From an uncultured virus (IMG/VR IMGVR_UViG_3300050343_000142) (Duplodnaviria > Heunggongvirae > Uroviricota > Caudoviricetes), in the IMG/VR virus record IMGVR_UViG_3300050343_000142: a stretch of 64,000 bases of DNA; one strand, written 5' to 3'. Below the pieces are notes generated by a model. That model did not search any database. It was given only the letters and a program-made list of their open reading frames with translations, and had not been told where the DNA came from. The position numbers and the translations under genes were made by a program. This document shows positions 2,280 through 64,000 of this stretch, in pieces (position 1 is the stretch's first letter; each line of letters opens with the position of its first letter).

Positions 2280-5159
2280 TTAAAATCTCCTAGTCATTAG
2301 TGCACCAGCTTGAGCTATTATCTGAGAAGCAATGATTACAGGAACCACAACTTCTTTAGATTTTTGACGCTGGTCGCTTGTCATGTCGGCTCCTAGTGAC
2401 CCCAAGTCCATCTCTGTTATATTAACATCAATTAACGCAGCAACTGGGTTTTCAAGAAACACCTCTACTTGTACCTCAGTAACAACGTCTGCAAGTGTAA
2501 AGTTTTCTACATCTGCATTTTCTATAGCTCTTTCTACATATTCCTCAACAGCAGTAGCTATATTCTCTTCTTTAGAAGCAGCTTCTGCAATAAGTTCGAC
2601 GTCATCAGCAGCTGTTTCTTCTGAGAAACCTAGTAGCTCTCCAACTACTTCTTTTTCTTCTTCGTTTAACTCAGCAACTGTTTCAACTTTTGTAACCTCT
2701 TGAACTACAGCTTTTACTACAGCTTTGGTTTGAGTGTCTGCAGTAGCTAGGTTTTGGACATCAGCAGTAGCTACTTGTTCTACAACTTGTACAAGTTCTT
2801 CTGTTTCTAATTCAGCAACGACTTCTGCTACGGCTTCTTCAACAGCTTCGACATATGCCTCTGCTTCTTCTTCAGATAATTCCTCAAGTTCTTCTTCTTC
2901 TATGATTTCTATATCTTGAGATTCAAAAACTTCTTCTAATTGTTCAGTATCTACAACTTCTGTAATAGCTTCTTGGACTTCTTCAACAAGAATTTCTACT
3001 TCTTCTTCTGTGAGTTGTACCTCTTCGTCTCCCTTATCACTAGGAAGTGGCTCAACCTCAAGTATCTCGTCAATTTCTTCATCTGCAAAATCTTCGATGA
3101 TAGGTATAGTTGTAGTTGTGGTGCTCGTAGTAGTAGGAGCAACAATAATAACTTCTTTAAACTCAAAAACTTCTTCTTCAACTTCTATAACCTCTAATGT
3201 TTCTTGTAACTCTTGTATTGTATCAACTAATACTTTTAAATCTTTTTTTTCATCGTCAGATAAATTATCAGTATCTACATCTTTAAGTATAGACTCTTCT
3301 AACTCCTTTTGTATTTTAGCCTCAGCTTCAGCCTCGATACGAGCTAACTCTTCCTGCTCAGCCTTGATTCTAGCTTCTTCCTCTAAACGAAGACGCTCCT
3401 CTTCAGCTAAACGCTCTTCTTCTGCAATACGCTCTGCTTCAATACGAGCCTCTTCTTCAGCTTTTTCTTGAGCTATGCGAGCCTCCTCAGCCTTACGAGC
3501 TTCTTCTGCCTTACGAGCTTCCTCAGCTTTCTCTGCGGCAATACGATTTTCCTCAGCTATACGAGCTTGTTCAGCTTCATAAGCTGCTTGGGCTGCTGCG
3601 TCTGCATCGTCTTTAGCTTTTTGGTTAAATACAGTTAATGTCGGTTCGGTAGAAAAACCACTATAAGCATTATCATCAGAGCTATAACCTCTGACTGAAA
3701 ACTCGTAAGTTCCATTAGGAATGCTTGCATAAGGAATAGTATATTCTGTTTCTGTAATGTTATAAACAATTGTTTCATTTTCTGCATCTGTCCTAAAGTA
3801 CAATTCATAAGTTTCAGCAGTTAGAGTTCCTGTATTAGCTTCATCCCAATCTACATTTACACCGACATTGTATTCTTGCGTTACTGCTGTATTCATTGGA
3901 GGTCCCAAGAACGCAGGAATAGTTGTTGTAGTTGTAGGAGTAGTAGCATTAACTGTTATTTGAACAGGACTAGTTCCTTGATTCCCATGACACCAGCTAC
4001 CATTTTGTGTGCAAGCATAAAAACTAAACCAATAAGTTCCTGCTGTTATAGATTCAAGATTATAAGTTGTAAGACTTGCATCTGTTATATTTTGACTGTA
4101 AACATCATCGTCATCATAATTCCAAGTGTTATCTCCATCACTATATTCTATTTTATAACTTGTAGGACTTGACCAACCTGTTCCTGGATTTGTCCAAGTA
4201 AATTTTAATCCTTGATACTCAGTATTTTCTATAGTTAAATTAGTAACCCCTGCTGCTACATCTTGTATTACATAACTAGCTACAGAAGTCCAATTTGAGT
4301 ATTGAGAGTTGGTATCATTGTCTGCTCTTACTTTAAAGTAAATAGTATCGCCTACATCAAACTCTGAATTTAAATATGTTTTAGTAAATGTATATTCTGT
4401 ATTAAGAGCATTAGCACCACCTACATTACCTGTTGCTACTGCGTAGTTCATACTTTGGAAGTTGTCGTTGCTAAAAGCTACTGCGTATCTTTCTGCATTA
4501 TATTGGTATCCTGTAGCTGCATCCCAATCAATACTTATACTACCACTATGTAAGTTTGCAGAAACAGTTAGATTAGTTGGGTCTCCTATTCCACTAGCTA
4601 ATGTTGTAGTAGTCGTAGTAGCAAAGCTACCAGTAGAAGTTGAGTCATCATATTGCCAATATAAAGTATCTAGTAAAGATAAATCAGATAATATAACTTC
4701 AAACTTTGTAATAAATTTATCTGTGTTTTCTGCTACAGCATTGTAATCAGTGTATGACTTGTAGATAGTTTCATACATATTATCTAAGTTTTGGTTGTTT
4801 TGTGCATTTTTACTTACAGTTTCATCTGTTCCATCAGCGTAATACCACTTAATAGACCAAGCATAATTTACTGCACCTACAACAAAACCTACTTCATATA
4901 CATCAATGTCACTAGAAAATTCAAAAGTATAAGTGCCACTTGTAATTCCTAATGAATTACCTGTCGTTCCATACCTACCGTTTTCGTTTGTATAAATAAA
5001 TGCAGCTTGACTACCACCACTAATAGTTAAACCTGCTTGATAAGTGCTATCAGTAAAGTCTTCATTGACTGTTACTTCTGCACCCATAGCAATAGGCATA
5101 GGATATATTAGCAGTAATACTACAGATAATCTAAGGAATGTATTTAACTTGTTTAACAA
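2280..5159 (-). CDS. large secreted/surface protein with FN3-like domains, EA-rich coiled coil, acidic stalk and C-terminal hydrophobic anchor
   Basis: Signal-peptide-like N-terminus; three FN3-like repeats (PTNLTV..IDW..Y..VRA); poly-Thr linkers; C-terminal EVVVPVIIASQII. Confidence 0.75.
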   Translation of the reverse strand: MLNKLNTFLRLSVVLLLIYPMPIAMGAEVTVNEDFTDSTYQAGLTISGGSQAAFIYTNENGRYGTTGNSLGITSGTYTFEFSSDIDVYEVGFVVGAVNYAWSIKWYYADGTDETVSKNAQNNQNLDNMYETIYKSYTDYNAVAENTDKFITKFEVILSDLSLLDTLYWQYDDSTSTGSFATTTTTTLASGIGDPTNLTVSANLHSGSISIDWDAATGYQYNAERYAVAFSNDNFQSMNYAVATGNVGGANALNTEYTFTKTYLNSEFDVGDTIYFKVRADNDTNSQYSNWTSVASYVIQDVAAGVTNLTIENTEYQGLKFTWTNPGTGWSSPTSYKIEYSDGDNTWNYDDDDVYSQNITDASLTTYNLESITAGTYWFSFYACTQNGSWCHGNQGTSPVQITVNATTPTTTTTIPAFLGPPMNTAVTQEYNVGVNVDWDEANTGTLTAETYELYFRTDAENETIVYNITETEYTIPYASIPNGTYEFSVRGYSSDDNAYSGFSTEPTLTVFNQKAKDDADAAAQAAYEAEQARIAEENRIAAEKAEEARKAEEARKAEEARIAQEKAEEEARIEAERIAEEERLAEEERLRLEEEARIKAEQEELARIEAEAEAKIQKELEESILKDVDTDNLSDDEKKDLKVLVDTIQELQETLEVIEVEEEVFEFKEVIIVAPTTTSTTTTTIPIIEDFADEEIDEILEVEPLPSDKGDEEVQLTEEEVEILVEEVQEAITEVVDTEQLEEVFESQDIEIIEEEELEELSEEEAEAYVEAVEEAVAEVVAELETEELVQVVEQVATADVQNLATADTQTKAVVKAVVQEVTKVETVAELNEEEKEVVGELLGFSEETAADDVELIAEAASKEENIATAVEEYVERAIENADVENFTLADVVTEVQVEVFLENPVAALIDVNITEMDLGSLGADMTSDQRQKSKEVVVPVIIASQIIAQAGALMTRRF

Positions 5160-5171
5160 TTGTGCTCCCTG

Positions 5172-5540
5172 TTAGCGAGCACCTCCATCATATTCGGTAA
5201 CTAAACCTTCTGCTAACATCATTTTGTTGATTGATTGTTTGCGACTTCCACTAACGATAAATAATTCACCGATTACACGACCATACTTCCCATACTCATA
5301 TGATTTAAGAATAATATTTTTTGATGAACCCACTGCTTCTGGGTCTATTTTATTTATAAGCCATTCTTTGGCTATAAGTCCTCGTTTTTTTTCTTCCTTA
5401 TCTCGTGTACGAGTTTCTGGAGCATTGACTCCAGCGAATCTGATACGCTTGTGAATTTGGAGATTATAACCCAAATCAATCCAGCAGTCAATAGTATCCC
5501 CATCGACAACTCTGTCAACTCGAATATTATACTCATACAT
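5172..5540 (-). CDS. thermonuclease (SNase-like)
   Basis: RVVDGDTID, RIRFAGVNAPE and GKYGRVIG motifs. Confidence 0.9.
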   Translation of the reverse strand: MYEYNIRVDRVVDGDTIDCWIDLGYNLQIHKRIRFAGVNAPETRTRDKEEKKRGLIAKEWLINKIDPEAVGSSKNIILKSYEYGKYGRVIGELFIVSGSRKQSINKMMLAEGLVTEYDGGAR

Positions 5541-5679
5541 TTTTTAAATCACCATTCTTATCAACTTCTTCGTTGAAATGTGTACAACTTCTATTATCGC
5601 ACACCATTGGTGATTTATTGGTCTTTATTGAATTTGCACAATAGTTGCAAAAAATGAAATTAATATTGTCATATCTCAA
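5533..5679 (-). CDS. 48-aa zinc-ribbon-like micro-protein
   Basis: AAGGAAG RBS, TTG start, CNYC...CDNRSC. Confidence 0.5.
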   Translation of the reverse strand: MRYDNINFIFCNYCANSIKTNKSPMVCDNRSCTHFNEEVDKNGDLKNV

Positions 5680-5712
5680 ATAGACTTCCTTGTAGCGGAT
5701 TTTTAAGAATGG

Positions 5713-5780
5713 TCCTAGGGGGTATATACCCCCCAGAGCCTATGCACCTGTCGTATCTCTACGACTTCCCTGTTGGGAAC
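5713..5780 (-). promoter_or_regulatory. structured intergenic element (three hairpins) downstream of the holin
   Basis: TTCCC-AACA-GGGAA, GTCGTA-GAGA-TACGAC and the palindrome GGGGGTATATACCCCC (5718-5733). Confidence 0.45.
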
Positions 5781-5781
5781 C

Positions 5782-6000
5782 TTAACCTTTCGGAATCTTT
5801 GACATAAATGGAAAGGGTGCGTCTTCTAACGCATTTTGAACTACGCTGACTAAAGCTGCAGCTCCAGCTACTAGACCTGCTAAAAGCACGTCTGCTTCAA
5901 ACATTCCTGCTTGATTTGCAACTAGAACAGCAACAAATGCTTGTGCACCTGTTCTGAACGCTCTAATCATTGATGTTCTTATATAATCTGGCATATTCAA
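5782..6000 (-). CDS. holin (actinophage r1t-like)
   Basis: RAFRTGAQAFVAVL motif, two TMs, directly after the candidate lysin. Confidence 0.75.
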   Translation of the reverse strand: MNMPDYIRTSMIRAFRTGAQAFVAVLVANQAGMFEADVLLAGLVAGAAALVSVVQNALEDAPFPFMSKIPKG

Positions 6001-6004
6001 CTCC

Positions 6005-6556
6005 TTACAGTATTCTTCTGCCTTGTTTTTCTGCTTCGAGAATTTTTACTTGTCCTCGTAAGTCAGAAACTTGTAATAATAATTCATCTATATTCAACAT
6101 GTCTTCAACGTTGGAATATTTTATAGTGACTTTTTCACCAGCTAAAATAGCATCAGCAACTTTAGGGTACATTTTTTTGTATGCAACACCACTGTTCCCG
6201 ACAAATCCATCTTTGCCTTTATCTAAATCTGTTTGAGTTTCACCAATTATGTAACATCCACTGGTGTGCTGGTCGGTGTTCCCCGTATGGATTAATATCC
6301 ACTGGAATCCAGGAACATCTTGTAACCAAAGCATACCTTTATGAAAGGCACCATATTTTGCTACATACTTTGAATGAAAGCCACCTTCTGTTCTTAGCTT
6401 GATTTCGTATTCACCTTCGGGAATACAGGTCTCATGCATAACCTTTACATCTCTATATTCATCTTCGAGACCGTAGCATTCAAATTCTCCATCAATAAAT
6501 AGAAGGGAATTTGTTGCATCTGCACCGAATTGAAATCGAATTACATCTAACTTCAT
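6005..6556 (-). CDS. DUF5675-like protein, candidate endolysin (L,D-transpeptidase-like His/Cys motif)
   Basis: CIPEGEY, DVPGF.WILIHTGN...TSGC; next to the holin. Confidence 0.75.
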   Translation of the reverse strand: MKLDVIRFQFGADATNSLLFIDGEFECYGLEDEYRDVKVMHETCIPEGEYEIKLRTEGGFHSKYVAKYGAFHKGMLWLQDVPGFQWILIHTGNTDQHTSGCYIIGETQTDLDKGKDGFVGNSGVAYKKMYPKVADAILAGEKVTIKYSNVEDMLNIDELLLQVSDLRGQVKILEAEKQGRRIL

Positions 6557-8500: not shown

Positions 8501-9355
8501 ATGACATCACATCCAAGGGTATTTATAAAATTAGCTTCTTTAGATGATTCAGAACTATCTCACACTATAGAAAATGCAGTAGAGTCTGCAAAGTATCCAG
8601 AAAGATTAGTATTTGGTGTTTACTTACATTACTCAACTGACGTAGCTAAACAAGAACTATTGGACTACACTGATAGACTTAGTTCACGCTCATCCTTTAG
8701 ATTAGAGCTCGAAACCTTCAATAAAGCTCATTTAGGTGTAGGTAGAGCACGACACAAGGCAGAATCTATGTATGATGGTGAAGATTATGTACTACAGGTA
8801 GACGCACATTCATGGTTTTGTAAAGATTGGGATGAACTCTTAATAGGACTATTAAAGACTCAAACAGATAAAACTATATTGACTGGATATGCTCCTGCTT
8901 ATATATCTAAAAATGGAATCAGAGAACCTAAAGGTAAAGGTTTTTTACTTCCTATTTACAACAAAAAAGTGGAACCAGTTGATTGGCTACTTAATTGGCA
9001 TGCAATTACTCCACCTAGTTCACTACCTTTTATACCTACTAAGTTCTGTGCGAACTTTGCTTTTGGTACAAGTGAATGGGGTAAGTACTCTGGACTAAAT
9101 AAAGAATCTATATTTTGGAGTGAAGAACCTTTACAAACTAAAAATTTAAAAGATAGAAGTTTTGAAATGAAACTACCTAATGTAGATTATCCACTTATAT
9201 GTCATCTCTATGAAAGAGACATAGAAGGTGAAGGAGGAAAGCGTTCTGATATTGGAGCTTATATTTCTGATGAAGAAAAAGAATATTTAATTAATGTTGT
9301 AGATAAAGAAATTTATTTGTCGAATTTTTTACAACCACATTCACAATCACTATAG
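8501..9355 (+). CDS. GT60/Gnt1-like GlcNAc-transferase family glycosyltransferase
   Basis: VFIKLAS..D.EL..TI, GVGRAR, YVLQVDAHSWF..WD, CANFAFG, EE motifs. Confidence 0.8.
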   Translation: MTSHPRVFIKLASLDDSELSHTIENAVESAKYPERLVFGVYLHYSTDVAKQELLDYTDRLSSRSSFRLELETFNKAHLGVGRARHKAESMYDGEDYVLQVDAHSWFCKDWDELLIGLLKTQTDKTILTGYAPAYISKNGIREPKGKGFLLPIYNKKVEPVDWLLNWHAITPPSSLPFIPTKFCANFAFGTSEWGKYSGLNKESIFWSEEPLQTKNLKDRSFEMKLPNVDYPLICHLYERDIEGEGGKRSDIGAYISDEEKEYLINVVDKEIYLSNFLQPHSQSL

Positions 9356-9457: not shown

Positions 9458-9721
9458 TTAGGGTACTATAAAAATACATTCTCCTGGGCATTCTTCAGCT
9501 GCTTCTGTAACTATATCTTCGTCACCCTCTGGAACTCTTGCTAAACCTTCTGCACCTTGGTCGTTGCCATCAATAGAACTAAATATTTTAAGGTCACCAA
9601 AGTTTCCAACAGTTTCCTGAACATAGGCTAGACCATCATTTTTCATAGTAAAGATGTCTGGTGCTATTTCTGCACATAGTCCGTCACCTGTACATAAGTC
9701 TTGGTCTATCCAAACTTTCAT
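9458..9721 (-). CDS. single-cluster ferredoxin (actinobacterial type)
   Basis: MKVWIDQDLCTGDGLC...ECPGECI (CxxDxxC...CP). Confidence 0.92.
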   Translation of the reverse strand: MKVWIDQDLCTGDGLCAEIAPDIFTMKNDGLAYVQETVGNFGDLKIFSSIDGNDQGAEGLARVPEGDEDIVTEAAEECPGECIFIVP

Positions 9722-13318: not shown

Positions 13319-13872
13319 TCTTTAATCACCTCTGATTCACTTCTGCCTGATGGAAATTGATATCCTTGTTTTGTGTGTTGTCCTAAAACAAAGTGATAAT
13401 TATCAGGTCTTGCAAAGTTAAAATATAAACACAAACTTAATCCAGTGTTATTTTTAACATAATGTTCAAATTCTTGTCCGTTGTAAGCTATTGCCTCTTC
13501 ATTTTGGACAACAATTTCTTGTCCTTGGTATTCTAACACAAGTTCATTTTCGGAGAAGTAATTATAAAGTATGGTGTGTTCAACAGGACCAGTGTCATGA
13601 TGACTACTTGTTTTCCTATCTTCATACCAGCTAAGAGTTGCAAATGTAGGTAGTAGGTCATGTATTGCAAAAGTTTCTCTAGCTACATCAATAAGAGAAT
13701 TGTGATACATGTTTAATTCATTACATTGTTTAACCATGTGTGAACCATCTGGACTTTCTTTCCATTTACTGTCTTCATAGTATGGAGATTCATTGTCCAA
13801 CCAATATTTCATTTCTTCTAATTTGTTACCTTTAAATATTTCATTTAACTTAACTGCGTTCATTATTAACAC
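13309..13872 (-). CDS. 2OG-Fe(II) oxygenase-like protein
   Basis: HHD...H triad; resembles 10451-10945. Confidence 0.65.
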   Translation of the reverse strand: MLIMNAVKLNEIFKGNKLEEMKYWLDNESPYYEDSKWKESPDGSHMVKQCNELNMYHNSLIDVARETFAIHDLLPTFATLSWYEDRKTSSHHDTGPVEHTILYNYFSENELVLEYQGQEIVVQNEEAIAYNGQEFEHYVKNNTGLSLCLYFNFARPDNYHFVLGQHTKQGYQFPSGRSESEVIKDWL

Positions 13873-14533
13873 CTTCCCTGTATTGCAGAGGCATGCCTTC
13901 CCAATCCATAGGATGACCTAGCCATGTTACTATTGCATATTTAGTTCCTTGAACCACGGGCATTGCTTGGTGTACATATGCGTAGTTACTAGGAAACAAT
14001 ACTAAAGCTGGTTTATCTGGTTTTATCATTTCATCAAAATGTACAAAGTATGTACCTCCACCTTCATATTCAGATGGGTTTAAAAGTATTAATGCTGATA
14101 AGTATCTAGGTATATGTGGTGCGTAATCAGCGTGTGGTTTATATTCTTGTCCACCACCATATTTAAGTAATTGGAAACCTTCATCAAACAATATTGGAAA
14201 CTCATATTTTTTAGTATATTCATTTACAGCTGCTTCTAGTTTAGATTGAACCATTGTGCATATCTGTTGTATATCTCGTATTAAGACATCATTACCAGCT
14301 TTTACAGCCTCTCTTACTTCTCTTGATTCAGCAGGTAAGGAAGCTATGCCTGATAAATTCATTAATAGATTACTTCTAACATCTCCACCTTTATGACCTT
14401 TACCAATAGATGCATTCTCATAACCTAAAGGTATTTGACTGTTCTCTAAAGCTTCTGCTGCTTTTATTACTTCTTCTGCTTGTGTTCCTGAAAAGAAATC
14501 TTCATAAATTTCTACTACACCCATATTATTCAT
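13850..14533 (-). CDS. prolyl-4-hydroxylase-like 2OG-Fe(II) dioxygenase
   Basis: QLLKY, HAD, LN..YEGG, FPSN..HQAMPV..GTKY; start reassigned to MNNMG (ATGA overlap). Confidence 0.88.
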   Translation of the reverse strand: MNNMGVVEIYEDFFSGTQAEEVIKAAEALENSQIPLGYENASIGKGHKGGDVRSNLLMNLSGIASLPAESREVREAVKAGNDVLIRDIQQICTMVQSKLEAAVNEYTKKYEFPILFDEGFQLLKYGGGQEYKPHADYAPHIPRYLSALILLNPSEYEGGGTYFVHFDEMIKPDKPALVLFPSNYAYVHQAMPVVQGTKYAIVTWLGHPMDWEGMPLQYREGVNNERS

Positions 14534-15261
14534 CGTATTTCCCTTCTCTGTATGTCTTCTATATCTGCACCTTCTTCTAAACTTGCAATATCGTAATGTG
14601 AAGCACATGACACAAGAAAAGCTGCTTTCCTACCATTTAAAAGAGGCGTAGTTGCATGTGACCACATATATGAACTTGGCATAATAACTACACTACCAGC
14701 TGGTGGTTTGTAAGGGTCTACTTCAGGAAAATATCTAAAACTTAAAGCTCCTCCATCAAAATCATCATTCAAGTAAGTTAGAGCAGTTATTCTTCTAAAG
14801 TATGGTGCAGGATAGTTTTGATTTGTATTAGGATTTCTTACAGAGTGATTGTCACTATGGTAAGTCATGTGTTTAGGTGGTCTGTATGTTATATACTGCC
14901 AATTTTCCATCCAATTCACTTCTCTTGAGACTTCTTCAAACATATCAAAGTAATCTGCAATTTTATCTAAAACATTTTTTTGACAATATTTTAAAAAGGT
15001 TTTTGAATCTTCGTGTTTAAAATCGTTTTCAGGTGAAAATCTAATAGGTCCATTTGCTAAAGCTACAGAGGATTTTGCATTTTTTTGTTTAATGTCTTGT
15101 TCAGTAACAGTAGGTACCCAAGCGTCAACTTCTTTATTCATTGTATCGATGACACCTTCTGGTACATCTAAGCAGTTTTCCCAAGACCAAACGCCTTTAA
15201 CTACCTCTATTGGTTTTACTCTACGCCAAAGATTATTCTTCTTCACTCGGTGGTGCCTCAT
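14530..15261 (-). CDS. prolyl-4-hydroxylase-like 2OG-Fe(II) dioxygenase
   Basis: HSD, YLNDDFDGG, PSSYMWSH..P..GRK; start uncertain. Confidence 0.85.
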   Translation of the reverse strand: MRHHRVKKNNLWRRVKPIEVVKGVWSWENCLDVPEGVIDTMNKEVDAWVPTVTEQDIKQKNAKSSVALANGPIRFSPENDFKHEDSKTFLKYCQKNVLDKIADYFDMFEEVSREVNWMENWQYITYRPPKHMTYHSDNHSVRNPNTNQNYPAPYFRRITALTYLNDDFDGGALSFRYFPEVDPYKPPAGSVVIMPSSYMWSHATTPLLNGRKAAFLVSCASHYDIASLEEGADIEDIQRREIR

Positions 15262-58296: not shown

Positions 58297-58599
58297 TTAG
58301 GATAATTGAGTAGGGTCGTACATACTGTATTTAACAGTAATTTCTTCTCCATCTTTAATATCTGTTAAAAAATATAAATATCTAAATCTTTGAACTTCTA
58401 CAATCTTTGCATTAGGTTCTTCACTATGATTAATAAAACCACCTAAAGGCGTTCTGTATAATTTTGTAGTTATAGAGTCTTCTATATGAGTGATACCACC
58501 GTTTACACCTTTTTCTATATCACCTAATGCAAATAGTCCTAATCCATCAATGTTAGATTTATCTATTGTAAGAAATTCAGGTAAAGGTCTATATGTCAT
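58297..58599 (-). CDS. SET-domain protein
   Basis: GLGLFA, GFINHSEEPN, DI..GEEITVKY. Confidence 0.88.
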   Translation of the reverse strand: MTYRPLPEFLTIDKSNIDGLGLFALGDIEKGVNGGITHIEDSITTKLYRTPLGGFINHSEEPNAKIVEVQRFRYLYFLTDIKDGEEITVKYSMYDPTQLS

Positions 58600-59572
58600 T
58601 ATGAAACCAATCTAAAGGAACGTGATAGTTGTGTAAAGATTTTTCTTTAAAATCTACATTCATCCACTTCTCGTATCTTTTTATAGTTTCTTGTAACTTA
58701 GGGTCTTCGTAGTATCTGACAAAGTTTTGCATTTCTTTTTGCTCTAGCATATCTTTTTCTTCAGGACTAACAAAGTGATGCCAATAAGCCCTTCCTCCAC
58801 CTTCAGAGCTTATCTCTGTGTTGTACATGTGACCAACAATTGGTTGTGTATTTGGATAAACAAGTTCCCAACCATCATTAAGCAATTTAAATGTTTTACA
58901 CATATCTTCTTCCATCATCAGCATTTCTGGGTCTTCATCATAAAGAAAGTTTTGACCACTGAAAGAAAAGTTATAACTAAACTTACCAGTAGGAATTAAG
59001 TTTCTATCATCTTTTATAGTATCTTTAACCATCCAAGGTAAGCAATACTGCCATATTGGTTGTGAAAGGAAAGGATATAGTTCTAAGTCCCATTCTTCTT
59101 CCCATCCAATATATGGATATAAATTCTTGTTATCTATAAAAACTCTTTGTTCATCTTTGTAAGCATACTTAGAAGGGTATGCAGTAATGATTGATTTCTT
59201 ATTACCAGTCAACTTAGTAGCGTCTTCGTAAAGCCAAGCTAACTTTTCATCCCAACCCTCAGAAAACTTAGTATGGCTATCAATAGAAAGAACGAAGTCT
59301 TCTCCATCATATAATTCAGAGACACCCTTCCTAGCCTTACCAGTACCAATCTTATCTAATCTATTATCTTCGTTTATATAATCAAAGTATCCTTTAATGT
59401 TTCCACCAAAGGTAGAGATAAGAGTTGAAAGCTTTTTTTCTTCTTCTGGTGATGATGATAAAAATCTTATTCCAAAATGTATGTCGTGTGATTTTGCATT
59501 TTCAAATGCATCAAAGACTGTTGGTAGTAATTCCGTATCGTGCATTGTTGGCATTGCTATAAATATTGACAT
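58589..59572 (-). CDS. GT60/Gnt1-like glycosyltransferase (paralog of 8501-9355)
   Basis: SIFIAM...D.EL..TV, GTGKAR, FVLSIDSHTKF..WD, IITAYP, EE. Confidence 0.8.
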   Translation of the reverse strand: MSIFIAMPTMHDTELLPTVFDAFENAKSHDIHFGIRFLSSSPEEEKKLSTLISTFGGNIKGYFDYINEDNRLDKIGTGKARKGVSELYDGEDFVLSIDSHTKFSEGWDEKLAWLYEDATKLTGNKKSIITAYPSKYAYKDEQRVFIDNKNLYPYIGWEEEWDLELYPFLSQPIWQYCLPWMVKDTIKDDRNLIPTGKFSYNFSFSGQNFLYDEDPEMLMMEEDMCKTFKLLNDGWELVYPNTQPIVGHMYNTEISSEGGGRAYWHHFVSPEEKDMLEQKEMQNFVRYYEDPKLQETIKRYEKWMNVDFKEKSLHNYHVPLDWFHNDI

Positions 59573-59975: not shown

Positions 59976-60119
59976 ATGGATTACATAATTGGATTTTTAA
60001 TAGGATATACATTTAAAGAAATTGTTCTATTCCTTAATAGATTAAGTAAGTGGGATTACGATAATCGTTATCAATCTGAATATGACTTTCGTCCATTAAC
60101 AGAAGACGACTTACCTTAA
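59976..60119 (+). CDS. 47-aa putative single-TM micro-protein
   Basis: MDYIIGFLIGYTFKEIVLFLNRLSKW...; manual translation. Confidence 0.5.
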   Translation: MDYIIGFLIGYTFKEIVLFLNRLSKWDYDNRYQSEYDFRPLTEDDLP

Positions 60120-60440
60120 TAAATCTCCTAAAGAAACATCATCATCATTATCAACGATTGGTTTCATCTTACGTTCTTTACGAATAGCTCTACGTTCTCT
60201 TTCTGATTTTCCTCCCCAAATCCCAAAACGCTCTCCTCGTTCCAAAGCTTGTTCTAAGCAAGGCTCTATTACTGGACATTTATTACATATCTCTTTTGCC
60301 TTTTTAGTAGAACTGCCTCGTTCTGGAAACCATTCATCAGCATCAAGTTCGGGGTGAACAACTGTGTTACAAGCAGCGTCTGAATACCACTCTGGAATTC
60401 CTAAGACATCTGCTAATAGGCTTACCTTATCCATATACAC
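60111..60440 (-). CDS. whiB: WhiB-family Fe-S transcription regulator
   Basis: W...AAC, WFPERG, AK.IC..CPV...CL..AL, GIWGG.SERERR. Confidence 0.95.
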   Translation of the reverse strand: MYMDKVSLLADVLGIPEWYSDAACNTVVHPELDADEWFPERGSSTKKAKEICNKCPVIEPCLEQALERGERFGIWGGKSERERRAIRKERKMKPIVDNDDDVSLGDLLR

Positions 60441-60604: not shown

Positions 60605-61069
60605 TTAGTCCCCATAGGAAATCTGAAACTTTATAGGCTCTCCGCCCTCTGCTCCGATTTCAAGACTGGACCTTTTGCCCCACTTCTTTGGGAAACTTCG
60701 CTCTAGCCACCAAGCACTCGCTTGCCATACTCCATTATCACTAGCCCTACGTATATTACGTATGTGAGCACCCTCAGCTTCGGCTCTTGCTTTTTTTACT
60801 GCCTCCGAAAACTCTGAATACAGGTCAATCACTTCACCCTCGACAGCTGCATCAGCTGGGACTATCTCGACATCATCCTCAGTGTTTGGTGGGTTTAACA
60901 ACTTATTGTCTTCCTTTTCAATGAACTTTTCGCCTCTCTTCATCCATTCATAGTAGGTTGAGGGCGAAATACCAACCATAGTGGCAGCGTCTTCCTGATA
61001 ATAGCCGAGTTTAAGCCAGTTAGTAATGTCTTCTATCAATTGTGGGGTTAACTTAGTAGGTCTAGCCAT
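60605..61069 (-). CDS. terminase small subunit-like HTH protein
   Basis: MARPTKLT, AA.MVGIS.STYYEW, WQASAWWLER; start reassigned to MARP. Confidence 0.75.
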   Translation of the reverse strand: MARPTKLTPQLIEDITNWLKLGYYQEDAATMVGISPSTYYEWMKRGEKFIEKEDNKLLNPPNTEDDVEIVPADAAVEGEVIDLYSEFSEAVKKARAEAEGAHIRNIRRASDNGVWQASAWWLERSFPKKWGKRSSLEIGAEGGEPIKFQISYGD

Positions 61070-61261
61070 CTTGAAAACCATTATATCAGGTTTAAACACA
61101 GGATAGAGCCTTATATACCGATAAGTGTATAGATGGTCAAACTCGAAAACAAGAGATTTTTGTACGGGGTGCTAAGCGTTATAGTTGAGTTACACTAGCG
61201 ATAACTTGACCACCCCCCCTTATTTGATGGGGATGGTGAGATATACGAGAAAGGAGTACAC

Positions 61262-61306
61262 ATGAGCAAAGTAACAGTTACTTTGATATTTGTACCTATT
61301 ACTTAG
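61262..61306 (+). CDS. possible 14-aa leader peptide
   Basis: AAAGGAG-N5-ATG; MSKVTVTLIFVPIT. Confidence 0.3.
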   Translation: MSKVTVTLIFVPIT

Positions 61307-61312
61307 TAATAC

Positions 61313-61355
61313 ACCCGTGACGGTCTTTAATCAAGTTCGACTCTTGATACGGGTA
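61313..61355 (+). ncRNA. tRNA-like minihelix (acceptor stem plus T-arm, no anticodon arm)
   Basis: ACCCGTG/TACGGGT 7-bp stem; TCAAG-TTCGACT-CTTGA T-arm. Confidence 0.65.
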
Positions 61356-61725
61356 CGAGTCCTACACCGAGATACATGGTGACATGTATTGAGGTGAGAG
61401 GATTGTGTCATCCCAGACTTTATGAATCTGGAGAGGGAAAACGTCACATCCCAAACATGCAGTAATGCATTACTAAGTGAAGCGTCTAATTACAGACTGA
61501 CGCCCTGTCGTGGTGAGTGTGTTGAGCCACGGGTTAATAATCAACCACAGGCAGTGAGTACGACTCCTTTGTACTGCGACTGCTTAGGGCAGTTTTACCT
61601 AGCCAGTAGTGACAGTACTGGCGAAAACTCCACAGATAATCACTAGGTAGTCTGGGACGAGTGCTGTTAAGTCAGCTCAGTCTTTGGGACCTCCTACCCA
61701 GTAGCTAGTGACCTGTCGATGAACA
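61356..61725 (+). ncRNA. candidate large structured ncRNA
   Basis: GC-elevated region with many helices, GNRA loops and long-range pairings (61411-19/61649-57). Confidence 0.65.
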
Positions 61726-61815
61726 ATAGCTTGTTGTATAGCTTGTGCTACTTCTTGGTGGAGTAGCCGAAGGTATACACACGGTATGCCGTTTACTAAA
61801 AAAAGGAGGATATCA

Positions 61816-62064
61816 ATGGATATCTATTTACTAGCAGCAATCGTTGCAACACTTACTTATATGTTTATAGGTAGGGAGTTGCTTAACAATATATTTCCTA
61901 ACTGGAGATATTGGATTGGACTTGAGACTGTCGAAGAGTCTCTTGGCTTTGGTGAAAGAGAAGTTGGTTACATACCTATGGAAGACATAGGAGATTCTAC
62001 TTTAAAGAATCAATGTGACCATCATCCTGCCTTAGTACTATCTGATTGCTACGGCTGTTTCTAA
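61816..62064 (+). CDS. small membrane protein with C-terminal Cys/His cluster
   Basis: AGGAGG RBS, start at MDIYLL; ends CDHH..CYGCF. Confidence 0.7.
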   Translation: MDIYLLAAIVATLTYMFIGRELLNNIFPNWRYWIGLETVEESLGFGEREVGYIPMEDIGDSTLKNQCDHHPALVLSDCYGCF

Positions 62065-62148
62065 TACAGCACAACTGCTCATCAAGTTTGACTTGGTGGG
62101 CAGCATGGTGTGTTAGTCCAACATACCACTAAAAGAAAGGAGATGCAT

Positions 62149-62340
62149 ATGCAATGTATCAAAACGGTTCCGTCTTCTAAGACGAAGGAGGAACAGTGTA
62201 CATATCCACCTTATGTCCAGAGTCAAACGGATAAGAGGGAGGTCTTGTGTAGGTTCCATTTGATGGATAAAGTCGTAAGACATGCACATGAAAAGAAGCA
62301 AACAGTTGAACAGACTGTAGCTGATTTAAACATAAGCTAA
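62149..62340 (+). CDS. small C-C-C-H zinc-binding-like protein
   Basis: AAAGGAG RBS; MQC...QC...LCRFH. Confidence 0.65.
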   Translation: MQCIKTVPSSKTKEEQCTYPPYVQSQTDKREVLCRFHLMDKVVRHAHEKKQTVEQTVADLNIS

Positions 62341-62361
62341 AACTGAAAGAGAGGAAGCTAT

Positions 62362-62424
62362 ATGGATGCTAAAGATATAGTGCGTAATCCAAACGCATTA
62401 GAAGCTATGTACGATATTAGCTAA
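62362..62424 (+). CDS. 20-aa micro-protein
   Basis: GAGGA RBS; MDAKDIVRNPNALEAMYDIS; its stop is the TAA of the repeat. Confidence 0.45.
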   Translation: MDAKDIVRNPNALEAMYDIS

Positions 62425-62495
62425 TAGCTCGGAGCCTATTGAAAGGTAGGCTCTAAGGTATTAACACAAGGTTAATCCAATACTAAAGGAGAGAC

Positions 62496-62810
62496 ATGAA
62501 TCTAATCATGAGACTAATACATGCAGTACCACTGTATGTTTTCATGGTCATTGAAAACTATCGTTTCTATGGCGTGAATTATGTTACCAGTTTGACACAC
62601 TGGTGGCGTGTAGAGGTATATACAATTACGGACTACAAGAAGTATGTGTTGTGTGAGCACATCAAGGAGTTCAGTAGTTGGTATGGACCTAAGCGTAGAT
62701 ACAACCATACTAAACATTCTTTAAAGAAGTTAGAGAGTGTTCTGGATGAAGTTGAACAAGAAAATAGAAGGCAACAATTTCTTGAACTAGATACAAATTA
62801 TCCACGCTAA
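62496..62810 (+). CDS. hypothetical early protein
   Basis: AAAGGAG RBS; its stop is the TAA of the repeat. Confidence 0.7.
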   Translation: MNLIMRLIHAVPLYVFMVIENYRFYGVNYVTSLTHWWRVEVYTITDYKKYVLCEHIKEFSSWYGPKRRYNHTKHSLKKLESVLDEVEQENRRQQFLELDTNYPR

Positions 62811-62880
62811 TAGCTCGGAGTTCATTTATGAGGTGAACTCTAGGGTATTAACAATGATACCACTAAAAAAAGGAGACTAT

Positions 62881-63081
62881 ATGAAGAAGAGTCTATTCAA
62901 GAAAATCACTTATCTAATTGAGTGTTTTTATAGTTTAGCAAAAGGTAGATACACTGCTGACATTGAAGCATTGAATATTGCTATGGATGTTTATGGAAAG
63001 TATCTATTTGTGAACCTAGGTGAATTCGAGGGAGCACCTAAGTTAATGTTGTTCACAGCAAACTGTTGTCCCGACTGTTAA
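62881..63081 (+). CDS. hypothetical early protein ending CCPDC
   Basis: AGGAG RBS, start at MKKSLF. Confidence 0.7.
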   Translation: MKKSLFKKITYLIECFYSLAKGRYTADIEALNIAMDVYGKYLFVNLGEFEGAPKLMLFTANCCPDC

Positions 63082-63154
63082 TAACTCGGAGCTCATTGTA
63101 ATGATGGGCTCTAGGGTATTGACACAAGGTTAGTACTAAAAGAAGGAGGGCTAA

Positions 63155-63334
63155 ATGCCTAGAATAAAAGATACTGCCAAAGTTATATTGTCAGACGAGA
63201 CAAGGGACGAGATGGTATATACGTGGAATGCATTCAACTTGGATGTTACCAAAGAAAGAAAACGAGAGCTTATGGGTCTTGTTTGGATACCAGCTTATGT
63301 CAATTGTTTCTTTAAGGAAATGATAGATAGCTAA
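63155..63334 (+). CDS. 59-aa hypothetical early protein
   Basis: AGGAGG RBS; MPRIKDTAK...EMIDS; stop inside the repeat. Confidence 0.7.
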   Translation: MPRIKDTAKVILSDETRDEMVYTWNAFNLDVTKERKRELMGLVWIPAYVNCFFKEMIDS

Positions 63335-63406
63335 TAGCTCGGAGCTCATTCACGTGGGCTCTAGGGTGTTAGTAATTCGACTAACCCACTAAAAGAAGGA
63401 GACTAT

Positions 63407-63565
63407 ATGAAGAAGATATTTGTAATCGAGCAAATTGTCAAAGAACAATATAAGGTCGAAGCAAATAATGAGGAAGAAGCTACCTCTAAACTTCAAGATA
63501 TGACTGCTGAACCATTCTTACAGGAAGGTATCAGTTTGAGAATTCTTGAGACTAGAACTAAGTAA
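63407..63565 (+). CDS. 52-aa hypothetical protein (VEAxxEEEA motif)
   Basis: AGGAG RBS; MKKIFVIEQ..YKVEANNEEEA. Confidence 0.7.
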   Translation: MKKIFVIEQIVKEQYKVEANNEEEATSKLQDMTAEPFLQEGISLRILETRTK

Positions 63566-63580
63566 AAGAAAGGAGGCTTT

Positions 63581-63706
63581 ATGTTATGTAGTCATTGTGG
63601 TAAATCCATGAAGAATACAAAAGTAAAGTTTAGAAAGTTCATGAGGCAAGGTGTAGTAGGTATGGCTCCTACTTGCAATGATTGTTATATGTCATGGGCA
63701 ATATAG
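63581..63706 (+). CDS. 41-aa Cys4 zinc-finger micro-protein
   Basis: AGGAGG RBS; MLCSHC...TCNDC. Confidence 0.7.
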   Translation: MLCSHCGKSMKNTKVKFRKFMRQGVVGMAPTCNDCYMSWAI

Positions 63707-63775
63707 CTTAAACAGCTCGGACCTACTAGATATAGTGGGTCTAGGGTGTTTAACACCAACATTATAAATATTGAG

Positions 63776-63804
63776 TTGACGTAGCAGTATTAATAATGTA
63801 CAGT
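63776..63804 (+). promoter_or_regulatory. candidate sigma70/SigA-type promoter
   Basis: TTGACG-N17-TACAGT. Confidence 0.4.
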
Positions 63805-63862
63805 AAAAACTACAGATTGAGCGTCAACCTCAATCCGTATAACCAATAAAAAAGGAGATAAA

Positions 63863-64000
63863 TTGAAAGTAGAAAATCTATCGTTTAACGAGATGATTGT
63901 TCAATTTGTAGCTATGTTGGAGGAACTACCAAGTCAAATGCATGAGCAATCATGTAACTGGCTTACTGGTGGAGATGCCGACTTTGAGTACGATGACATG
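63863..64000 (+). CDS. hypothetical protein, truncated by the window edge
   Basis: AAAGGAG RBS, TTG start, open to the end. Confidence 0.6.
   Translation, partial: MKVENLSFNEMIVQFVAMLEELPSQMHEQSCNWLTGGDADFEYDDM

Follow-up and report, generated by a model that had tools for sequence, protein, structure and literature searches.

Small genes and hairpin elements at the locus

Close to the end of a 64,000-nucleotide (nt) stretch of DNA from an uncultured virus (IMG/VR record IMGVR_UViG_3300050343_000142; the whole stretch is called the window here), small genes follow one another on the plus strand and are separated by hairpin elements, which an earlier note made from the letters alone had described as five close copies and two divergent ones. 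The five close copies, called canonical copies 1 to 5 below, belong to a real and conserved RNA family that has two alternative folds and is absent from Rfam 15. The pattern CTCGG-N14-30-CTARGGT matches the window five times (62428, 62814, 63085, 63338 and 63716, all on the plus strand) against 0.02 matches expected from shuffles, and a covariance model (R1) built from 35 sequences finds the same five copies of about 56 nt each (62416-63758, plus strand) with 55.6-66.1 bits, while the next best match in the window, with 14.6 bits, is the reverse strand of copy 1. The elements and genes of the array are, in order (bits are scores of the covariance model; aa, amino acid residues; RBS, ribosome-binding site; ORF, open reading frame):

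61735..61790, plus strand: divergent element d1, part of the array's 5' leader; hairpin 61735-61779, long and imperfect, and overlapping hairpin 2 61772-61790, followed downstream by ACUAAAAAAAGGAGG and then an ATG at 61816
61816..62064, plus strand: first small gene of the array, encoding 82 aa when started at the RBS-proximal ATG; the TAA (62062-62064) lies inside the 5' arm of d2
62061..62128, plus strand: divergent element d2; 5' arm CUAAUACA, 13-bp upper stem 62075-62103, 3' arm 62109-62116
62149..62340, plus strand: small gene, 63 aa
62362..62424, plus strand: mini-ORF, 20 aa, ending in the 5' arm of copy 1
62416..62478, plus strand: canonical copy 1; hairpin 1 62416-62470, hairpin 2 62457-62478; 66.1 bits
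62496..62810, plus strand: small gene, 104 aa
62802..62861, plus strand: canonical copy 2; hairpin 1 62802-62857, hairpin 2 62844-62861; 65.3 bits
62881..63081, plus strand: small gene, 66 aa
63073..63137, plus strand: canonical copy 3; hairpin 1 63073-63128, hairpin 2 63115-63137; 62.7 bits
63155..63334, plus strand: small gene, 59 aa
63326..63387, plus strand: canonical copy 4; hairpin 1 63326-63378, hairpin 2 63365-63387; 62.5 bits
63407..63706, plus strand: a pair of small genes of 52 aa and 41 aa, not separated by an element; the 41-aa product is a CxxC..CxxC protein
63704..63758, plus strand: canonical copy 5, which closes the array; hairpin 2 (63745-63757) is short and not followed by an RBS; 55.6 bits
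63776..63804, plus strand: promoter-like site TTGACG-17-TACAGT, after the last copy and ahead of a 666-aa ORF starting at 63863

The two divergent elements keep the layout of the family, namely a lower stem, a mismatched middle, an upper stem and an overlapping downstream hairpin, followed by ACUAAA..GGAG, but their core is changed and the covariance model matches neither d1 (61735) nor d2 (62061) at E<=10; they are analogues or degenerate relatives of the family and not scored members of it. A third divergent copy follows the gene for the 666-aa protein, past the window end. In two related IMG/VR records (G003 and G004) d1 is kept ahead of a different gene, where the partner sequence of its hairpin 2 is changed and still complementary, and in d2 the alternative hairpin (62106-62128) is the minimum free energy state. 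No PHROG match was found for the 82-aa product of the first small gene. The mini-ORF (20-23 aa, ..KDIVRNPNALEAMYDIS) is conserved in four phages (the window, G003, G004 and G005) and always lies directly ahead of the first canonical hairpin, and the position of copy 5 ahead of the large ORF is likewise the same in G003, G004 and G005. The promoter-like site that comes after copy 5 is bracketed by a long inverted repeat at 63765-63840 (GAGTTGACG / CGTCAACCTC), which may be an operator or a leader structure.

Architecture and covariation of hairpin 1

Hairpin 1 consists of three stacked parts, a lower stem of 5-7 bp, a mismatched core of eight positions and an upper stem of 8-11 bp. The core, 5'-AGCUCGGA over 3'-UGGGAUCU, is nearly invariant and contains the mismatches G.G and C.A, while the stems vary in sequence and keep pairing, as the earlier note had claimed for both the inner and the outer stem. 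The inner stems that it listed are present in the sequence and fold as described, and the window copies adopt either this hairpin or the alternative one, at z-scores from -2.4 to -4.3. In the alignment of the 35 sequences, 96.0% of the cells hold standard pairs against 31.6-44.0% when the partner is slid, and 12 of the 18 pairs change on both sides, a count that is not one of independent events because many alignment rows are related; none of 500 shuffles reaches the observed scores. A 7-bp inner stem was required when the sequences were picked, so the upper stem is partly ascertained. The lower stem is free of this selection, and taken alone it is paired in 89.8% of cells against 23.7-51.4% when slid, with changes on both sides in six of its seven pairs. 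There are 30 distinct upper stem-loops, and the 3' arms of hairpin 1 also vary among the copies.

RNAalifold returns the same fold independently and in a symmetric register (A11-U53, G12.G52, C13-G51, U14.G50, C15.A49, G16.U48, G17-C47, A18-U46). The bulged purine on each arm that had been drawn earlier is thus replaced by the mismatches G12.G52 and C15.A49 and a U14-R50 pair, a register which is also favoured by the natural variants: three CUAAGG variants keep a U14-A50 pair where C15-G50 would break, and position 12:52 is seen as G.G, G.A and U-A. Fourteen columns are invariant in the 35 sequences.

The elements act on the sense strand as RNA, as far as sequence features can mark this. Among the 278 upper-stem pairs, 45 are G-U pairs on the plus strand, 13 of the 30 distinct loops are of the GNRA or UNCG type, and the reverse strand of copy 1 scores 14.6 bits against 66.1 bits for the copy itself. 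The argument from plus-strand G-U pairs to a function as RNA, which had been made before, agrees with these features.

A second hairpin that reuses the 3' arm

In all 39 distinct canonical instances, the 3' arm of hairpin 1 together with the GG of the core can pair with the next 10-25 nt to form hairpin 2, so that the two hairpins, having a 3' arm in common, are mutually exclusive, as had been proposed. The energy of hairpin 2 ranges from -3.9 to -11.1 kcal/mol over the 39 instances, and its native mean of -6.5 kcal/mol compares with -3.6 kcal/mol when the downstream parts are swapped and -2.5 kcal/mol when they are shuffled (p 3e-13). Position 54 covaries with both its partners. The first paired base of hairpin 2 is nearly fixed: it is G51 in 31 of the 39, G50 in five, G52 in two and U53 in one. 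The full hairpin (A) and the combination of upper stem and hairpin 2 (B) are close in energy, A minus B being -0.84 kcal/mol on average (standard deviation 3.0), with A favoured in 25 of 42 cases and B in 17.

Distribution of the family

Two pattern scans of IMG/VR (the second tighter, the first yielding mostly chance matches), followed by a hairpin filter and then by the covariance model, gave 65 matches in 64 loci, which reduce to 49 distinct instances (44 with canonical anchors) on 15 phage contigs, every one of them in gene sense and grouped in a single small-gene array. This adds a well-supported structured RNA family, carried by uncultured phages most of which encode WhiB. Counted over whole records, the model finds six copies in G002, seven in G003, six in G004, six in G005, seven in G006, one in G007, two in G008, one in G009, one in G010 and four in G011, and in each of these ten records all copies lie on one strand within a few kb. 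Single copies are thus found in G007, in G009 (a complete 65-kb record) and in G010. The element is confined to the small-gene array in the window (5/5) and in G006 (7/7), a complete 38-kb record where the copies lie in 2915-6519 at the head of a leftward small-gene array. G006 and the window phage have almost no proteins in common, only three G006 ORFs showing matches at E<1e-4.

Rfam 15 holds no match to the family; the best overlap is with osmY (19.8 bits against a cut-off of 46.9, E 0.42), and three others have E values of 1.7-8, all of them at the level of chance. The family was not found in the literature searched either. A covariance model and a search of Rfam and of viromes had been suggested as a check of the earlier note, and the outcome is a family that is neither a known one nor a set of plain terminators. 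In addition, the model could serve as a marker for the early regions of such phages in metagenomes.

Position relative to genes, promoters and terminators

The elements are placed in a fixed manner with respect to the genes. Each of the 44 canonical instances has a stop codon whose first base lies 6-15 nt ahead of C13, at -6 in 30 of them and usually as UAA-UAG, and the upstream frames are open over the up to 60 nt examined, except for one that is open for only four codons. An RBS and a start codon follow 25-68 nt after U53 in 41 of the 44, and the other three are of the last-copy type. In the window, a TAA lies in the 5' arm at 62062, 62422, 62808, 63079 and 63332, copy 5 has a TAG at 63704, and ACUAAA..AGGAG follows six of the seven elements, which agrees with what had been noted for the RBS and the stop codons. 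The common 5' arm TAGCTAATAG (62416-62427 and equivalents) contains stop codons in two reading frames, and an upstream gene in either of two of the three frames would terminate inside the element.

No sigma-70-like promoter was found in copies 1-4, and one weak consensus match (9/12) overlaps copy 5; in 60900-64000 there are five promoter-like sites against 8.9 expected. The terminator scan found no U-tract terminator at the copies and three terminator-like sites elsewhere. Because of the layout of the array and the lack of internal promoters, we infer that the array is early and is read as one transcript.

Several candidate identities were rejected on these grounds. An intrinsic terminator or classical attenuator does not fit, as no U tract follows either hairpin on either strand. 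A known ribozyme is not supported by any Rfam match, a loop pseudoknot is ruled out by the unconserved loops, and the core forms an almost unbroken helix. A readthrough or frameshift signal is at odds with the tandem in-frame stops (UAA UAG) and the further stops inside the hairpin, and repeats of the REP or MITE type (repetitive extragenic palindromes, miniature inverted-repeat transposable elements) with the single orientation, the fixed register to stop codons and the restriction to the array. Among the ORFs scanned in the window and in the downstream contig L187, no integrase, RNase III or RNA-binding domain was found. A phage-encoded RNase III was accordingly dropped as a candidate, the ORF at 5175-5540, which resembles SNase, being located in the lysis region.

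Likeness to the early RNA processing sites of phage T7 and to other hairpins

The T7 early intergenic regions, folded from the deposited sequence, give hairpins with a variable lower stem, a conserved mismatched middle (ACUC..AAGG / CCUU..UAUGA), an upper stem of about 10 bp and small loops, and genes 0.4 and 0.7 have UGA and then in-frame UAG stops in or beside the 5' arm. We take these hairpins to be the RNase III sites R0.3, R0.5, R1, R1.1 and R1.3, whose names and positions are reportedly those of Dunn and Studier (1983). The elements described here have a T7-like shape: both are intercistronic, are carried on the sense strand in an early-gene array, and combine a variable lower stem, a mismatched middle, an upper stem of about 10 bp and a small stable loop, with stops in or beside the 5' arm at two of the T7 sites. 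They differ in the core sequence, in the host, which is Escherichia coli there and a probable actinobacterium here, and in the covarying hairpin 2 that reuses the 3' arm and is conserved in 39/39 instances here. Searched against 20.6 kb of T7 and SPO1, the covariance model matches best just ahead of T7 gene 0.3, where it aligns end to end with the hairpin (L315:452-505, T7 record 851-904), including the following ACUAAUA; this weak match (14.0 bits, E 0.18) is a hint and no proof, and could reflect convergence or a distant common design.

Hairpins at the 5' end of a messenger RNA (mRNA), such as STAB-SD and the aprE leader, are known stabilisers, and Emory, Bouvet and Belasco (1992) are said to have found that 5'-terminal stems protect mRNA in E. 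coli. Hairpin 2 would resemble them by lying at most 1 nt from a new 5' end and upstream of a strong RBS; the difference is that the 5' end arises from transcription initiation there and putatively from processing here.

A further parallel comes from phage SP82, whose early RNA, according to an excerpt of PMC4838370, is a substrate of RNase III in Bacillus; there too phage early-mRNA hairpins are concerned, and in the same excerpt they are cut by the narrow-specificity RNase III of a Gram-positive host, an enzyme class that is able to cleave either a single strand or both. In the first 14 kb of SPO1, a relative of SP82, the covariance model finds nothing (best 8.9 bits, E 6.5). A single RNase III cut which leaves a folded 3' end stabilises the mRNA and a double cut destabilises it, as stated in an excerpt of PMC6993053.

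Possible punctuation of a polycistronic early mRNA

By analogy with T7, the reading that fits best is one that had already been offered, RNase III-type processing with a refolding 5' hairpin: the elements would be sites where an endonuclease, probably the host RNase III, punctuates the polycistronic early mRNA and leaves self-protecting ends. The T7-like architecture and the fixed start of hairpin 2 speak for it, while the cleavage, the enzyme, the position of the cut and the effect on stability are things that we infer, and we hold the reading tentatively, as nearly but not quite an even chance. Between the lower stem, with the stop codon of the upstream gene in its 5' arm, and the upper hairpin, often capped by a stable tetraloop, a double-strand-specific endonuclease, most likely the host RNase III, would cut in or beside the core, in the manner of the early sites of T7. 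If the cut falls at or beside G50/G51, the upstream message would retain the upper hairpin as a barrier to 3' exonucleases, and the released 3' arm would fold anew with roughly the following 10-25 nt into hairpin 2, beginning at G51. The downstream message would then start base-paired just ahead of its RBS and be protected from RNases that depend on the 5' end. A host factor is more likely than a phage factor, because G006 and the window phage share the element but almost no proteins, and because WhiB is encoded in all five other records tested as well as in the window. If the reading is true, phages with probable actinobacterial hosts employ mRNA punctuation of the T7 type, the 3' arm is used twice, as one side of the cleavage stem and afterwards as one side of a protective hairpin at the 5' end, and it would become clear how small early genes can be exchanged as units ready for expression. 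Moreover, operon design in actinobacteria would profit from such compact insulators between cistrons.

Several observations weigh against this reading. Contigs of one RNA-library run (X15) span copies 1, 2 and 4 uncut, which reflects either uncut RNA or carried-over DNA. The four runs concerned (X15-X18) are assembled contigs, from which ends, strand and level cannot be read, and their uncovered stretches and short high-depth contigs at copy 5 are uninformative. The probable actinobacterial host is uncultured. The covariance model did not find the element in 306 cellular actinobacterial genomes (4 + 151 + 151, sampled and passed through strict filters, which is not proof of absence), where no use of the signal by a host was seen, and a pattern scan of genome contigs showed the lower stem in none of the 120 loci listed, a result that is uninformative on absence. 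No conserved sequence is known to be required by RNase III, and the near-invariant core could point to a sequence-specific factor instead; this invariance is, however, partly forced by the core-based search pattern, the copies found by the model alone mostly keeping the core with limited change. Finally, the T7 match is not significant, the other four T7 intergenic hairpins go unscored at E<=10, and the T7 records used do not annotate these hairpins as RNase III sites.

A more far-reaching version, to which we give only a low probability, is that the RNA processing unit coincides with the evolutionary cassette. A factor reading the core would set free, as a monocistronic and self-protected mRNA, a unit made up of a 5' hairpin 2, an RBS, a gene, a stop and a 3' hairpin, and recombination would move the same unit from one actinophage to another that is otherwise unrelated to it; in that case the core would be an expression adaptor, portable and specific to a host clade, and not a generic RNase III stem.

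Other explanations

The fixed stop codons also suit a ribosome-driven switch between two states without any cleavage, in which the terminating ribosome would melt the lower stem and the core, hairpin 2 would form, and the compacted RNA, through hand-off, re-initiation or blocked scanning, would couple the next gene's translation or insulate it. All 44 canonical instances have the stop codon in the 5' arm, the two folds are near in energy at the mean difference given above and both covary, and in some copies the freed 5' arm is able to pair with GAGaCUAU at the RBS. We nevertheless consider such a switch unlikely. The predicted accessibility of the RBS does not rise when a ribosome sits at the stop codon (0.77 for the full RNA and 0.72 with the ribosome, p 0.14, 40 instances) and is 0.84 for an RNA starting at G51, the pairing of the 5' arm with the RBS is limited to some copies, d1 has no upstream gene, and a purely structural switch needs no invariant core. 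Of the ribosome-triggered switches coupling translation that had been put forward before, the form that would open the RBS is not supported, since the modelled accessibility barely differs between the states, although other forms of coupling are possible.

The invariant core itself suggests that the elements may be sites for a sequence-specific protein of host or phage, such as a different endoribonuclease, a translational repressor or an RNA chaperone, which reads the mismatched core while the stems merely present it. Fourteen invariant columns stand beside freely covarying stems in the 35 sequences, the variants at 12:52 (G.G, G.A, U-A) keep bases opposite each other, and upper-stem length (8-11 bp) and loop vary, so that recognition would be independent of the apex. 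Part of the invariance is nonetheless a matter of ascertainment, d1, d2 and the copy after the gene for the 666-aa protein keep the layout with a changed core, and no RNA-binding or RNase domain was found among the window ORFs scanned; a reader encoded by the phage also fits poorly with two element-sharing phages that have almost no common proteins, although a host reader is possible. On balance this explanation appears rather improbable.

A primary role at the DNA level, with the elements as cassette boundaries that promote recombination, draws on the comparison with related phages. From the mini-ORF to the gene for the 666-aa protein, the order of gene families is 4-1-5-(24,25) in the window, 4-18-31-(1,19) in G003, 5-18-21-(1,19) in G004 and 4-21-5-1 in G005, so that the cassette order differs in all four phages, with an element at each border. 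An RNA-library contig joins 63124 back to 62477, inside two elements, and, judged by eye, hairpin 2 for the most part goes with the gene downstream, the upper stem more often with the gene upstream. The shuffling of gene cassettes at the elements between related phages is therefore real, and to this extent the earlier proposal of cassette boundaries held. The shuffling is more likely a consequence of shared sequence than the purpose of the elements, because there are single-copy genomes and because selection acts at the RNA level; the approximately 25 nt common to the elements would offer crossover points, and the shuffled cassettes would therefore be explained as a by-product. Selected G-U pairs, GNRA/UNCG loops and a second covarying hairpin make no sense for double-stranded DNA, copies 1-4 have no promoter and no copy has a U-tract terminator, the scanned ORFs include no integrase, and G007, G009 and G010 have a single copy each. 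A primary DNA-level role is thus very unlikely.

The two known systems that had been named as models for such boundaries are also different from the elements. Integron attC sites act as folded single-stranded DNA with the integron integrase. The elements are like them in forming imperfect hairpins at cassette borders with conserved ends and a variable middle; unlike them, they come with no integrase among the scanned ORFs, have RNA-type loops and wobble pairs and occur in single-copy genomes; their 3' arms vary and the G-U asymmetry favours the top, sense strand, whereas attC sites have conserved R''/R' core sites and extrahelical bases on a folded bottom strand. An attC-like role at the DNA level is disfavoured by the RNA-type loops and the G-U asymmetry. 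The promoter early stem-loops (PeSLs) of T4-type phages are described in excerpts of PMC2839356 and PMC4122927 as a strong sigma-70-like promoter with a terminator stem-loop; as presented there, they are likewise short conserved motifs on either side of early genes that are small and variable, and shuffling at these motifs sets related phages apart. The elements lie inside one transcription unit and, unlike PeSLs as those excerpts describe them, are without promoter or terminator; identity with PeSLs was rejected, given the lack of a sigma-70-like promoter in copies 1-4 and of a U-tract terminator at any copy.

Attenuators or partial terminators without U tracts, grading expression along the array, could account for strong hairpins directly after genes and for the promoter-like site after the last copy, but they are highly improbable, as U tracts are missing after all copies, the absence of promoters between the internal copies requires readthrough of the array, and the invariant core and the conserved hairpin 2 would be left unexplained.

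The phage genome, its probable host and habitat

The window represents most of the genome of a siphovirus-type phage, in which transcription diverges at 61100 and the plus-strand small-gene array begins after about 640 nt of non-coding DNA. The main features on the other side are:

about 61100 down to 750, minus strand: terminase small and large subunits, portal, protease, major capsid, tape measure and tail genes
60111-60440, within the minus-strand structural-gene stretch: WhiB-like gene

The non-coding region 61100-61735, between the divergent terminase operon and the array, contains a C7 run and many predicted stems, and no Rfam match was found for it; contigs of two RNA-library runs skip 61239-61308 and have small indels in 61100-61735. 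No close DNA relative was found among deposited phages by megablast and blastn, the capsid protein shows at most 35% identity to those of deposited phages, and the nearest record, G001, is without the motif. The IMG/VR record G002 is nearly identical to the window and extends past its end.

WhiB is encoded by the window phage and by all five other motif-bearing records tested, and among 14 control genomes the same test gave a signal in Corynebacterium only; on this basis the host is probably an actinobacterium. As to habitat, 94-96% of the sampled words of 61700-63800 are present in 14 public runs labelled seawater, marine or viral metagenome, and all public runs with words of this region number 20, from 14 studies.

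Downstream of the array, the G002 extension contains the 666-aa ORF, then a gene resembling GATase_4 and others. The 666-aa ORF has a TTG start, runs from 63863 to 64000 and continues in L187:1177-3177, is conserved in G003-G005 and G009, and is without a Pfam or PHROG match. Beyond the GATase_4-like gene, a gene resembling gamma-glutamyl cyclotransferase lies on the opposite strand, and the three may form a small module related to metabolites or modification. Furthermore, the window contains accessory genes that are unusual for a siphovirus, at 5175-5540, 9461-9721, 13853-15261 and 58300-58599, for an SNase-like nuclease, a 4Fe-4S ferredoxin, two 2OG-Fe(II) oxygenases and a SET-domain protein, as well as two glycosyltransferase genes (8501-9355 and 58589-59572). 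At L187:8736-9198, a single 135-aa ORF of G006 is matched by each of two minus-strand ORFs that lie side by side (95 and 69 aa), and by this comparison the gene may be split or frameshifted in the window phage.

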